Under the pieces are notes generated by a model that did not search any database, had not been told where the DNA came from, and saw only the letters and a list, made by a program, of their open reading frames with translations. 64,000 nucleotides of DNA. Origin: Octopus vulgaris (lineage: Eukaryota). This document shows positions 9,888 to 46,468 of the stretch, in pieces (position 1 is the stretch's first letter; each line of letters opens with the position of its first letter). Where the stretch lies: the NCBI GenBank assembly GCA_951406725.2, contig OX597837.1, positions 35,216,001-35,280,000 of the forward strand. The letters are read 5' to 3'. The position numbers and the translations under genes were made by a program.

Positions 9888-10690
9888 GGCCTCAGCAGAA
9901 TTTGAACTCAGACTGTAGTGATGGATGAAATACCTTTAAGCATTTTATTCAGTATTCTAACGATTCTGCTAGCTCACCATAACCCTAAACCCTAACACCA
10001 GTTTAATAATCCTTTCTATTAAAGACACAAGGCCTGAAATGTGGTAGGAGGATCTAGTTGATCATATCAACCCCAGTACATAACTGGTGTTTATTTCATT
10101 GACCCCCCAAGAGGAAGAAAGGCAAAGTTGACCTCAATGGAATTTGAACTCAGGACAGCGGTGGCCAAAATATTGCTAAGCATTTCATTCAGTGTGCTAA
10201 CGATTCTGCCAGCTTGCCACCCTAAACACCAGTTTAATGATCCTTTCTACTAAAGGCACAAGGCCTGAAATTTTGGTGGGAAGGTCTAGTCAATTATATC
10301 AACCCCAGTATATAACTGGTACTTATTTCATTGACCCTCCAAAAGGAAGAAAGGCAACGTTGACCTCGGCAGAATTAGAATTCAGGACAGCGGTGGGCAA
10401 AATACCTTTAAACATTTCATTCAGCATGCTAACAATTCTGCCAGCTCACCATCCTAAACACGAGTTTAATAATCTTTTCTACTAAAGGCACAATGCCGGA
10501 AATTTGGTGGGAGGGTCTAGTCGATTATATCGACCACAGTATGTAACTGGTACCCAAGAGGAAGAAAAGCAATGTTGACCTCAGCAGAATTTGAACTCGG
10601 GACATAGCAGTGGGCGAAATATCGCTAAGCACTTTGTTCAACGTGCTAACAATTCTGCCAGTTCACCACCCTAAACACCAGTTTAATAAG
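9888..10690 (-). repeat. Tandem array (about 228-bp period, about 3.5 units) of SINE family B
   Basis: Repeated CTAAACACCAGTTTAAT junction at about 9992, 10222, 10454 and 10671. Confidence 0.85.
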
Positions 10691-33954: not shown

Positions 33955-34860
33955 GTGGACCTGAGGGAGAAAGACTGAAGTTTCCTTCCCCCCCAGCTTG
34001 TCCAATGGCCAGATGTCGTTCTATGGTCAGAAAAGGCAAAGGAAATAATCACAAACAAGTTTACAGTCCTGTGTGAAGAACGGTGCAATCAGGCCTACAA
34101 ATTGAAGTGCACCATGTACAAGATCCTTCTACAGCGGTGAGTTGGCAGAATTGTTAGCACGCCGGGCTAAATGCTTTGTGGTATTTCGTCTGCCGTTACG
34201 TTCTGAGTTCAAATTCCACTGAGCTCGACTTTGTCTTTCATCCTTTCGGGGTCAATAAATTAAGTACCAGTTACACACTGGGGTCGATGTAATCGACTTA
34301 ATACCTATGTCTGTCCTTGTTTGTCCCCTCTGTGTTTAACTCCTTGTGGGTAATAAAGAAATAGGTATTTCGTCTGCCGTTACATTCTGAGTTCAAATTC
34401 CGCTGAGCTCGACTGTCTTTTAACCTTTCGGGGTTGAAAAATTAAGTACCAGTTACGCACTGGGGTCGATGTAATCGATTTAATCCCTTTGTCTGTCCTT
34501 GTTTGTCCCCTCTATGTTTAGCCCCTTGTGGACAATAAAGAAATAAGATCCTTCTACAGGATTACAGGGAGAAGGGATGGCAGGCATGGCTTTGCCCAGT
34601 CGAGGTTGGCTGTAGGGGGTACCTGGACCAGTCAGTATAGAGGATGCTTACAGACACCGGAATAAGGGGAAAAAGAGTGAAGGATGGTTGTGAGTGGGAT
34701 GGGAGAAGCAGCAGAAAGAACCCCTTGCTGATGGAGCAGGGGAGAGGAGTTGAGCAGGAAGCCAAGAGGAGATGATGAGCAGTGAGATGGCCACCTCTGC
34801 TGACTCACTAACAGGAGGATGTTACGGTCCAGGGTTGAAACACCTTATGATTTTTGGATA
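33955..34860 (+). mobile_element. Decayed non-LTR retrotransposon restriction-like endonuclease domain (HERO-like), split by a SINE dimer
   Basis: PDVVLWSEKAKEII...YQDLLQ|DYREKGWQAWLCPVEVGCRGY; SINE insertion flanked by a 15-bp TSD AAGATCCTTCTACAG (34120-34134, 34545-34559). Confidence 0.75.
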
Positions 34861-35020
34861 CTGTCTGATGATATCAGTTACTCCTGGCCAAAGTTCCATT
34901 CACCTTGGTGAGTGTTAAAGAAGTGCTTTCTTCAGGTGTTTTGTTTACACATTTTCGATATCAGTGTCTGGAAAAAAGATATGTATTTGTGAAGGGAACC
35001 TACTTTTCATCGACAACTGT

Positions 35021-35454
35021 GATTGTCACACGCCGATGACGGGTCAATACCCAGAAACTCGAGTCCGTGTGTATTATAAGTTGAAGAAGGGAAGGATGGC
35101 TTCCCTTTGCAAATACTGATAGGGCACAGATTGTCACACACCGATGACGGGTCAATACTCAGAAACTCGAGTCTGTGTGTATCATAAGTTGAAGAAGGGA
35201 AGGATGGCTTCCCTTTGCAAATACTGATAGGGCACAGATTGTCACACACCGATGACGGGTCAATACCCAGAAACTCGAGTCTGTGTGTATCATAAGTTGA
35301 AGACGGGAAGGATGGCTTCCCTTTGCAAAAACTGATAGGGCACAGATTGTCACACGCCGATGACGGGTCAATATCCAGAAACTCGAGTCCGTGTGTATCA
35401 TAAGTTGAAGACAGGAAGGATGGCTTCCCTTTGCAAATACTGATAGGGCACAGA
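35021..35454 (+). ncRNA. Tandem array of 4 x 108-bp units, each with a type I hammerhead ribozyme fold (retrozyme-like)
   Basis: Units start at 35021, 35129, 35237 and 35345. Each reads CACACR-CCGATGA-C-GGGT-CAAT-ACCC-A-GAAA-CTCGAG-TC-YGTGTG; stem I G-C/A-U covaries between units. Confidence 0.8.
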
Positions 35455-36327
35455 AAGTGTGTCTATAGCCAGCTGGAGGAGGTGTCCTCCTGGGGCTACA
35501 AACTACAGTAGCATCCACCCTTAGGGGTTAGCCATATTTAAATGGTAAATATATGTCACGAATAATAAAGTTGTTTTATTAAATTCTTCATTATTTTCAA
35601 AATTAATCGAAACAGGTGAAATAGATTTCAAGAGAAAAATGCTAATGAAAAGGTTAAATGTCCATACAATAAAGTCTTGATGAAATAAGAAATATGATAG
35701 TCCATACCCTTCTATAAAGAAGCCAACTCTTCATCATTCATGAATAAGACTTGGTAGCAGGTACCATGCTTTCAACAATTGTTTTAGGTGCCTGTGTAAT
35801 CCCAAGCAGACATAGCCATCTTCCTGACCCTTTGAGTCGACGGTACATCCAGGATGTGACAGTGAAGGGCTAGGGGAAGAGAGAGATGGAGAAACAGAGG
35901 TGGGGAGAGAGAAAAGGAGAGAGGGAGAGAGAGTAAGAAACAGAGGGGAAGAGAGAGAGAGGGAGAGAGAGAAAGAGAAACAGACAGAGGGAGAGAGAGA
36001 AACAGAAGCAGAGAGAGGGAGAGAAAAACAGAAACAGAGAGAGAGAGAGAGTTGCACAATCAGTCACCTGGTGGTCCTTCCAGCTGAGTACACTGATACG
36101 GTGTGGAAAGGTGTGTCTTGCTTAAGACTACAACATGCTGCCTGGCTCAGGAAATGAACCCACAACATAAAGATAGTGAGGCAATCACCCTAACCACATG
36201 CTTTCTACCTTTCAATAAAGTTTGCTAAAATAAAAGGCATTTAAATGTTGTAACTGTTTAATCTTTGGGTTGTTTCTATAAATTAGAAATACTTGCGTTG
36301 AGAATGAACAGAATTTTAAATCTCTCA

Positions 36328-41510: not shown

Positions 41511-42499
41511 TAGAAAATTTCATTAAAAAATACCCGTTTTTCTGAAAGTTACGAGGAAACAATATCGGGAAGAGGGGCACACTTGTGCAGGTATACCAAA
41601 TGTCCTTGGGATGAATTTTTCGATTAAAAATTAGTTTTTAAAATTTTTATCAAAATAATCGTAACCTACACCATCTAATATGTAACTCTGGAAAATTTCA
41701 TTAACAAATATGTATTTTTAAGAAAGTTATAAATAACAACCTCATATAACCCGCGGTCAGTACCGATCCAGTAGATTGAACGATAACCAAATGAGCGTAC
41801 AACTACAGTTTAGTGCCCCACTTCTCGACTTTATAAATCTCATATAGATTGTAGTTATGTCCAAAAGTACTCCAGCTTTAACAACCAGTATTTATTTTTT
41901 TCAGACAATAAATATGGAACTTGGCTTTCGTTTACCTTTTGCCTTTCTTTTTCAAACATGGGATAGGGCAAGATTTAAGGAGATTCGGAGTGGCTTTTCT
42001 TGCAGGAATACTTATATGCTACAAATTTATAAACCTTGAAAAGAATCAAAGTAACAACTGTCATTTGTTATATTTTCCCCTGTGTTTCCTTATCCTACTT
42101 TATTATATATCTGCCTCTGTATGAAGGAGTCTATGTCTCTGTATATGTGTAGGGTGTACGATGTGTGTTTGTGTTTATGCGCACAGGGTCGTATATATTA
42201 AATATATGTATGTATACAAGGGGCTAAACACAGAGGGGACAAACAAGGACAGACAAAGGGATTAAGTCGACTACATCGACCCCAGTGGGTAACTGGTACT
42301 TAATTTATCGACCCCGAAAGGATGAAAGGCAAAGTCGACCTCGGCGGAATTTGAACTCAGAACGTAACGACAGACGAAATACCGCTAAGCATTTCGCCCG
42401 GCGCGCTAACGTTTCTGCCAGCTCGCCGCCTTTTTATACAGGGTATATCATGTTTGAACATTCCTGAAGGGCGAAACATTGCCCAAATAAACTACTTAC

Positions 42500-42789
42500 T
42501 TGAGTTTTTTGAATCTTTCTTTGCCGGCCGCCACGTAACCTCCACCTTCTTGTAGCTCTCTCGTATCTTCGACGGAGTTGCCACTCACCGGCGTGTACAG
42601 GCGCCGAATGGCCCCTTGTAAAGGGTTTAAAATCCTAGTGAGTTCATCGAGGAAGTTGTCGAAATTACGAATATGCCTCGTATTGACGACCACGTGTCTG
42701 GGAGGGGCGAACTTGTTACCGTTACAGAATATTTGGACATTTTTCACTTCAGTCGTTTCGGACTCCTGGGCATTGGCCGCTTTCGCCAT
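42500..42789 (-). CDS. DCDC2: First coding exon of a doublecortin-domain protein (DCDC2-like), N-terminal DCX domain
   Basis: MAKAANAQESETTEVKNVQIFCNGNKFAPPRHVVVNTRHIRNFDNFLDELTRILNPLQGAIRRLYTPVSGNSVEDTRELQEGGGYVAAGKERFKKL matches the DCX pattern (NG..F, FD.FL.E.T, GAIRRLYTP, YVAAG.E.FKKL). ATG in GCCGATGG context at 42789; ends at a phase-2 GTAAGT donor (42499). Downstream exons not identified; paralog assignment is tentative. Confidence 0.85.
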
Positions 42790-45954: not shown

Positions 45955-46468
45955 CTTTCTTTATTGCCCACAAGGGGCTAAACACAGAGGGGACAAACAA
46001 GGACAGACATAGGTATTAAGTCGATTACATCGACCCCAGTGCGTAACTGGTACTTATTTAATCGACCCCGGAAGGATGAAAGGCAAAGTCGACCTCGGCG
46101 GAATTTGAACTCAGACCGTAGAGATCGACCCCAGTGCGTAACTGGTACTTATTTAATCGACCCCGAAAGGATGAAAGGCAAAGTCGACCTCGGTGGAATT
46201 TGAACTCAGAACGTAGAGATCGACCCCAGTGAGTAACTGGTACTTATTTAATCGACCCCGAAAGGATGAAAGGCAAAGTCGACCTCGGTGGAATTTGAAC
46301 TCAGAACGTAGAGATCGACCCAGTACATAACTGGTACTTATTTAATCGACCCCGAAAGGATGAAAGGCAAAGTCGACCTCGGCGGAATTTGAACTCACAA
46401 CGTAACGCAGACGAAATACCGCTAAGCATTTCGCCCGGCGTGCTAACGTTTCTGCCAGCTCGCCGCCT
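45955..46468 (-). repeat. SINE family B with internal 96-bp segment amplified 4x
   Basis: ATCGACCCCAGT...GAACTCAGA unit at about 46029, 46124, 46219 and 46314. Confidence 0.85.

Follow-up and report, generated by a model that had tools for sequence, protein, structure and literature searches.

Does a short tandem array of hammerhead ribozymes in the genome of Octopus vulgaris record a miniature self-cleaving replicon, or is it a by-product of a larger element? The array lies at 35021-35454 of a 64,000-nucleotide stretch of contig OX597837.1 (the window), and all positions below refer to that stretch unless a contig is named. A first-pass annotation, made from the letters of the window, had read the four 108-bp units as a retrotransposed multimer of a 108-nt self-cleaving RNA. 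We arrive at a different account, to which we give a probability of about 0.84: a 352-nt retrozyme is copied in trans, one partial copy of it landed in the window, and positions 1-108 of that copy were then amplified locally in DNA.

Anatomy of the Array

Tandem Repeats Finder returns the array at 35021-35454 with a period of 108, 4.0 copies and 96% matches, as the first-pass annotation had described it. The four 108-bp units span 35021-35452 on the + strand (35021-35128, 35129-35236, 35237-35344 and 35345-35452), and any two of them differ at 3-6 of the 108 positions. Each unit has a helix I of 6 bp (in unit 1, 35027-35032 pairs with 35066-35071), the core CCGATGA followed by a 4-bp helix II and GAAA, a C.A at 10.1-11.1, and a helix III of 2 bp whose palindromic tetraloop completes an 8-nt palindrome (ACTCGAGT). 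The hammerheads occupy 35027-35071, 35135-35179, 35243-35287 and 35351-35395, with GTC ending at 35065, 35173, 35281 and 35389, one predicted cut position per unit. This anatomy bears out the earlier assignment of a type I hammerhead to every unit, the cuts themselves remaining predicted. Helix I contains a G-C pair in units 1 and 4 and an A-U pair in units 2 and 3; the variants in helix II give only G.U wobbles, as had been stated. A relaxed type I descriptor applied to both strands of the 64 kb finds the four array sites and none elsewhere.

The sizes of helix I, helix II and the short helix III with its palindromic loop, together with GAAA and NUH, are those of canonical metazoan type I hammerheads (PMC4209133), apart from two variant positions: all four units depart from the canonical core CUGANGA by a C at position 4, and from a paired 10.1-11.1 by the C.A mismatch. 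The minimal hammerhead described in the same source has a helix II of 7-8 bp, a helix I of 4-5 bp and little or no helix III, and the array hammerhead (4, 6 and 2 bp, respectively) is not of that type. A comparison with Rfam, suggested in the first-pass annotation, yields no hammerhead match in the array; since a sibling with the canonical core is equally missed, the blank is uninformative.

A Dispersed 352-bp Parent Family

Is the 108-bp unit an element in its own right? A search of the genome (2.8 Gb) with the unit gives 1700 first-look candidates, with 40 scored and 44 places listed, and the flanks of the dispersed copies are the same sequence as the flanks of the array. By alignment, the unit corresponds to positions 1-108 of a dispersed 352-bp family. 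The annotation had also proposed looking for other genomic copies of the unit; a looser hammerhead pattern has 569 matches genome-wide and a control pattern 0. The family also forms native arrays at a spacing of 352 bp: one contains eight full units and a total of nine hammerhead segments, another five hammerhead segments.

Non-LTR retrozymes occur as tandem repeats whose units measure about 150-450 bp and contain one type I hammerhead each, and the 352-bp family is a repeat of this kind. Its unit has a GC content of 0.457 (46%, thus below 50%) and a longest ATG frame of 57 codons, which marks it as non-coding; no tRNA gene was found in the three loci searched. It has no reading frame of its own with reverse transcriptase (RT) and GIY-YIG, so it is not an autonomous Penelope-like element (PLE). 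All the sequence-level features that we compared agree, and on these features the 352-bp parent is a further member of the non-LTR retrozymes. The first-pass annotation was therefore right to link the array to hammerhead retrozymes and wrong about the mobile unit, which is 352 bp and not 108. Our literature search found no description of this family, the supplement of PMC7229834 and the repeat databases lying outside its reach; the accessible text of an octopus repeat-annotation paper (PMC13282606) mentions neither ribozyme nor retrozyme nor hammerhead.

The octopus family resembles the animal non-LTR retrozymes, as far as the consulted parts of their description go (Cervera and De la Pena 2020, PMC7229834; e.g., mussel repeats of about 350-390 bp and axolotl Rtz_353 with HHR_Amex2), in being a non-coding tandem and dispersed repeat, in having one canonical-size type I hammerhead per unit with a 2-bp helix III and palindromic tetraloop, and in its highly self-paired predicted circle and coexisting PLEs. 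The U.U at the base of helix II in HHR_Amex2 is comparable to the mismatch of the octopus family at that place. The octopus family differs in the C at core position 4 (C4) of its youngest subfamily, in that its copies are mostly dispersed, truncated or inverted, and in being known here from sequence alone; the array locus differs further, since no more than 108 bp of the unit recur there. A hammerhead family of more distant relationship is seen at five other loci (L136-L140). Its helix III palindrome is different (ACCATGGT), its helix I letters are wholly different yet pair (most clearly in L139 and L140), and its 3'-end motif is similar to that of the retrozyme family. C4 is present in four of the five fetched loci, those four having been chosen out of a C4 search.

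Local Duplication as the Probable Origin of the Array

BLAST against the native arrays places the four units inside a single 5'-truncated retrozyme copy (34941-35561, + strand), which runs through family positions ~264-352 and then 1-217, with positions 1-108 present four times. The 5' part of the copy (34941-35020) covers family positions ~264-352 with a 9-10 bp deletion and carries the 5' arm of a long rod that extends helix I, so that unit 1 has its native upstream context; this unit differs from the family majority at two positions. Unit 4 has its native downstream context, and the 3' part (35453-35561, family 109-217) ends in the main 3' end cluster of the family (208-220). No target-site duplication of at least 5 bp was found around 34941-35561, and the 3' flank is AT-rich and not (TA)n. 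The left flank of the element (34730-34920, covered by contigs of public runs) is a fragment of another repeat, 77% identical to two other loci (L085/L086), which suggests that the insertion hit an older repeat or the sequence next to it.

The junction at which position 108 is followed by position 1 has three matches genome-wide at one mismatch or fewer, all of them in the window, in a search beyond whose reach old, diverged 108-bp arrays would lie. The first of the three (35117-35139) has a 2-bp microhomology, GA. A spacing of 108 between neighbouring hammerheads on the same strand was likewise seen in the window only, among the loci examined. In four of four public runs, contigs depart from the reference at 35130 into the native continuation. 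These contigs, none of them on record as RNA, were compared over 34700-35160; no listed piece spans the 108 junction, and 34924-34955 and 35148-35160 are uncovered, holes that prove nothing in either direction. Measured against the majority of 44 family copies, derived bases are shared by adjacent units only: A68 by units 1 and 2, A12 and T46 by units 2 and 3, and none by all four. The history of the array that this pattern records is stepwise, not star-like. Exactly this arrangement would result if a trimer arose first and a 108-bp stretch, reaching from midway through unit 1 to midway through the unit after it, was then duplicated once; the copying of one circle would not be expected to give sharing between adjacent units.

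The array is thus very probably a local duplication at one locus, a minisatellite inside a single retrozyme copy. Positions 1-108 would have been amplified in DNA stepwise, by slippage or unequal exchange at the 2-bp microhomology, with a first duplication that is not datable apart from the insertion. The last step would have copied a 108-bp stretch straddling two units and already carrying A68, A12 and T46. In the resulting by-product four hammerhead cores would be kept and the long rod lost in units 2-4. The 108-nt piece lacks the region in which insertions start (208-265), which would explain why it has not spread.

Could the first 108-bp repeats have been made during the insertion itself? 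The RT would have slipped from position 1 back to 108 on the 352-nt template once or more, and later DNA events would have added or homogenised a unit. We consider this unlikely. The lack of a derived base common to all four units does indicate that multimerisation began early, template switches are frequent in the PLE-type insertions of the family (37 of 79 inverted), and the unit lies between inverted 5-bp matches, CTGTG before it and CACAG at its end. However, the sharing between adjacent units needs at least one duplication after mutations had accumulated, and a sub-unit direct repeat of the hammerhead occurs in no other fetched copy. With about two changes per 108 bp, the shared-base test has little power in both directions.

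Covariation and Folding

The first-pass annotation had taken the G-C and A-U forms of helix I as compensatory evolution. Both forms are present, and the A-U form is confined to 2 of 168 stricter-pattern matches, namely units 2 and 3 of the array. Among the 100 listed of these 168 matches, 93 have G-C, 5 have the 5' change alone and 2 the 3' change alone; the chance expectation for the double change is about 0.17. Both changes (A12/T46) are transitions at CpG sites. CpG hypermutability is not evident in the 44 copies (11/528 CpG positions changed vs 70/4224), a sample filtered by patterns that fix several CpGs. By these counts the "covariation" within the array is one double change that was later duplicated, a single local event.

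For the family as a whole we aligned 23 of 87 distinct hammerhead segments, picked to cover subfamilies with the upstream arm. In the hammerhead plus rod, 86% of cells are paired, compared with 26-47% in slid controls. Two-sided changes are found in 11 of 39 pairs and 33 cells, counts that kinship inflates (shuffle mean 14; 0 of 500 shuffles as high for cells). Across subfamilies the helix I pair is A-U in 16 and G-C in 6 of the 23 copies, and the central pair of the helix III palindrome is C-G in 11 and G-C in 6. This switch of the palindrome centre from CG to GC in 6 of 23 copies supports pairing in the dimer mode and upholds the earlier view of the palindromic stem III as suited to dimeric cleavage. 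The real covariation of the hammerhead, as the alignment has it, sits between subfamilies and not within the array.

The second hairpin that had been noticed in the spacer stands in part. It is complete in units 1 and 2; in units 3 and 4 the family base, C68, breaks its outer pair, and none of its 9 pairs has a two-sided change among the 23 aligned copies, so that the hairpin is not conserved as a structure. In the 352-nt fold the 3' arm of this hairpin pairs with sequence upstream of the hammerhead, by which helix I is extended to the long rod, and units 2-4 are without the upstream arm. The cost of reaching the active fold, in secondary-structure energies that ignore tertiary contacts, is 10.1-15.6 kcal/mol for array monomers, 9.8-18.5 for mismatch-free array dimers and 4.5-5.9 for the native dimer. 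When neighbouring units pair as dimers, two of the three combinations (1-2 and 3-4) have an A.C mismatch next to the cut as a result of the A12/T46 swap. If the + strand is transcribed at all, slow cleavage in the dimer mode would be possible, and we would expect it to be weaker than that of the parent.

These results bear directly on the original proposal that the array derives by retrotransposition from a multimer of a free, self-cleaving 108-nt RNA circle, i.e., a miniature replicon, which now appears highly improbable. Its exact head-to-tail period with one hammerhead per unit is what such a replicon would leave, and the predicted circle from units 2-3 folds well against shuffles (z -3.4; the other two 108-nt circles -1.8 and -1.9, the 352 circle -5.6). 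Nor is its size an objection: a 2026 preprint gives retrozyme consensus lengths of 51-972 bp in the parts we draw on (Li, Clavereau, Pollet 2026, 10.64898/2026.07.22.740005), so that 108 bp is not below the range of animal retrozymes, as had been supposed. However, continuous parent sequence encloses the array on both sides, and the junction is unique to the array locus in 2.8 Gb, with no independent locus of the 108-bp unit found, which largely refutes the proposal. Rolling-circle copying predicts identical units followed by private changes, against the adjacent sharing that is observed. The 108-nt piece also lacks either of the 3' end sites used by the family, and the mismatch beside the cut would affect dimers 1-2 and 3-4.

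Least probable of all is an assembly artefact in which one unit was over-expanded: the junction is indeed present at one place of one assembly, but the differences between units (3-6 positions) are arranged as real duplication steps would leave them, and several of the changes are alleles elsewhere in the family.

Insertion Footprint of the Family

How does the 352-bp family move? We mapped the ends of 79 insertions from 73 non-overlapping loci, dropping insertions shorter than 100 bp. Most of the 3' ends (91 of 116) belong to one of two clusters separated by about 43 nt, with 52 ends at 208-220 and 39 at 257-265, windows that make up 6% of the unit. Inverted pairs account for 37 of the 79 insertions. 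Where both ends lie in clusters (n = 19), a short end is paired with a tailed end in 17 insertions, and in no case are both ends tailed (p 0.0007 vs even odds). A (TA)n tract abuts 65 of 116 3' ends vs 8 of 42 5' ends, where 13 of the 42 scored 5' ends are at position 1, the end of the linear reference, and are not true ends. Among 29 copies picked without requiring a ribozyme, 22 extend through the cleavage site, the length of 10 is greater than one unit, and a pile-up of 5' ends at the cleavage site is not seen (2 of 29 at positions 40-52). Reading through the cut site, over-length copies and the missing pile-up together suggest that the templates were uncut multimers or circles.

This is the footprint of PLEs. 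Published PLE insertions, in the portions of the sources used here, are recognised by 5' truncation and partial tandems, by a 5' copy in inverted orientation, by a tail of 30-40 bp at one of the ends and by a bias for microsatellites (Craig et al. 2021, PMC8557442), and the tail has been attributed to a pair of internal sites at which reverse transcription starts (Frangieh et al. 2024, PMC11167929). The octopus family has the 5' truncation, partial tandems, inverted 5' copy, optional one-end tail consistent with two RT starts, and AT-rich or microsatellite targets; its tail of about 43 nt is slightly above the published length. It differs from PLEs in having no reading frame and in a hammerhead of canonical size, not of the minimal PLE type. 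We infer that the 352-bp retrozyme is moved by a PLE enzyme. In the mechanism that we propose, which starts from the observed family size, 352-bp period, end positions, inversions and (TA)n targets, a non-coding RNA of 352 nt, equipped with a single type I hammerhead, would be copied in trans by the reverse transcriptase-endonuclease of a PLE, from a template that would be a multimer or a circle, and a less-than-unit copy would have landed at the window locus, antisense to a DCX-domain gene. Cleavage is reported to be dispensable for PLE insertion in vitro in the available text of PMC11167929.

An autonomous partner with a homologous terminal repeat (pseudo-LTR) was found neither in the one PLE family examined nor in PLE frames beside four retrozyme copies. 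These frames lie behind (TA)n tracts and at least two carry a different hammerhead. Besides the young autonomous PLE treated below, three PLE frames, from different families, are separated from adjoining retrozyme copies by (TA)n (L099:2114-4303, L100:3246-5513 and L102:4045-7424); the last of these PLEs carries a minimal hammerhead of its own, in which the core is U3-A8, and there is a minimal hammerhead with C4 at L100:885. Such neighbourhoods suggest that PLEs and retrozymes share microsatellite landing sites. Two pairs of same-strand copies were considered as PLE termini and rejected. One pair, 5.9 kb apart, encloses an RT frame of another type (LINE-like by reading); the other, 7.65 kb apart, is a segmental tandem duplication with an identical retrozyme copy per half (L135, G000:C6:126381000-126390999).

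A 2020 review (PMC7761336) states, in the part available, that animal retrozymes lack a motif revealing the mobilising retrotransposon and that the partner is unproven. The 2026 preprint (10.64898/2026.07.22.740005), in what we cite from it, predicts PLE dependence, many monomers and local tandem amplification by unequal crossover, in line with the octopus family. Its evidence is pseudo-LTR homology and co-occurrence, mostly in vertebrates, whereas ours is an insertion footprint and no homologous pseudo-LTR was found. In the octopus family the PLE footprint can be read directly in the insertion ends, which gives candidate reverse-transcription start sites at ~218 and ~261.

The C4 Core and a Young Autonomous PLE

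The first-pass annotation had singled out the CCGAUGA core and the C.A mismatch as non-canonical features fixed in the array. They are indeed in all four units, but they are not peculiar to it: they are inherited from a subfamily and have published precedents. C4 occurs in 202 of the 569 pattern matches, and relatives with U at this position (U4) are the majority. In a tree of 27 of 30 loci from one contig plus the window copy (three loci left out for short cover), a single supported group (98/94) takes in every C4 copy (8) together with one U4 copy. The median nearest-neighbour identity is 98.6% for C4 copies and 93.0% for U4 copies. On the tree and these identities, C4 is the derived state of the youngest retrozyme subfamily.

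The same change marks an unrelated element. Intact PLEs are plentiful in the genome, and a very young autonomous one has a 775-codon frame with RT, the CX4CXXC linker motif and GIY-YIG, and occurs in tandem with a period of about 4271 bp (L101:5627-8000, L103-L132). All 150 of its 150 scored hits, on many contigs, are identical over 95 residues; it has (TA)n flanks and two 3' ends, and no DNA similarity to the 352-bp unit was found. Its hammerhead combines C4 with a U.U at the base of helix II in 30 of 30 loci and in 99 of the 100 listed of 1161 pattern matches.

A natural viroid variant with the same core change (U4C) is much slower in vitro yet sufficient for infectivity, according to the portion of Perreault et al. 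(2011, PMC3088659) that cites it, where a U.U at 10.1-11.1 is also described. U4C is rare in the viroid; in octopus it is the fixed state of one retrozyme subfamily (about 200 copies) and of an unrelated PLE family (more than 1000). The C4 ribozyme may be slowed but working, or it may simply be tolerated. The octopus family supplies natural matched U4 and C4 ribozymes, and with C4 marking the youngest expansions of two unrelated elements the need for cutting becomes easy to test.

It is tempting to see in the array a miniature retrozyme being born: the + strand would be read through, dimers would cleave in the cell despite C4 and C.A, a 108-nt circle would accumulate, and the C4 core would be slowed but working and favoured during expansion. 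We regard this as very unlikely. If it were true, the circle would fall below the 150-170 nt that is the lower end of the experimentally shown circles in the consulted part of PMC7229834. In Xenopus, 8 of 9 predicted retrozyme dimers did not cleave, as the available portion of the 2026 preprint has it (10.64898/2026.07.22.740005). On the favoured account of local duplication the array itself is of little importance; the parent family is of modest value.

Gene Context and Neighbouring Repeats

The first-pass annotation had placed the array antisense to a DCX gene, and a coding exon that holds a full DCX domain, with a GT donor directly after it, does lie outside the element at 42499-42789 on the minus strand. 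Another exon on the same strand, 60 kb past the left end of the window (G000:C24:35156278-35156370, -), has proper splice sites and encodes half of a DCX domain. The array is, by exon positions, probably in an intron next to the DCX exon, in antisense orientation. If both exons belong to one gene, the array would be intronic and antisense and its ribozymes absent from the pre-mRNA. A further DCX-domain exon is present at G000:C24:35326770-35326943 (-), so that DCX exons are spread over 170 kb on one strand, an arrangement that would be either a multi-DCX gene or tandem paralogues.

The window contains other short tandem arrays, at 34180-34545 (period 182), 46029-46404 (period 95) and 9989-10689 (period 232). 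The 182-bp array matches a dispersed repeat that is abundant and that forms tandem copies at another locus (L019) as well. Local tandem amplification of pieces of repeats seems to be common in the octopus genome.
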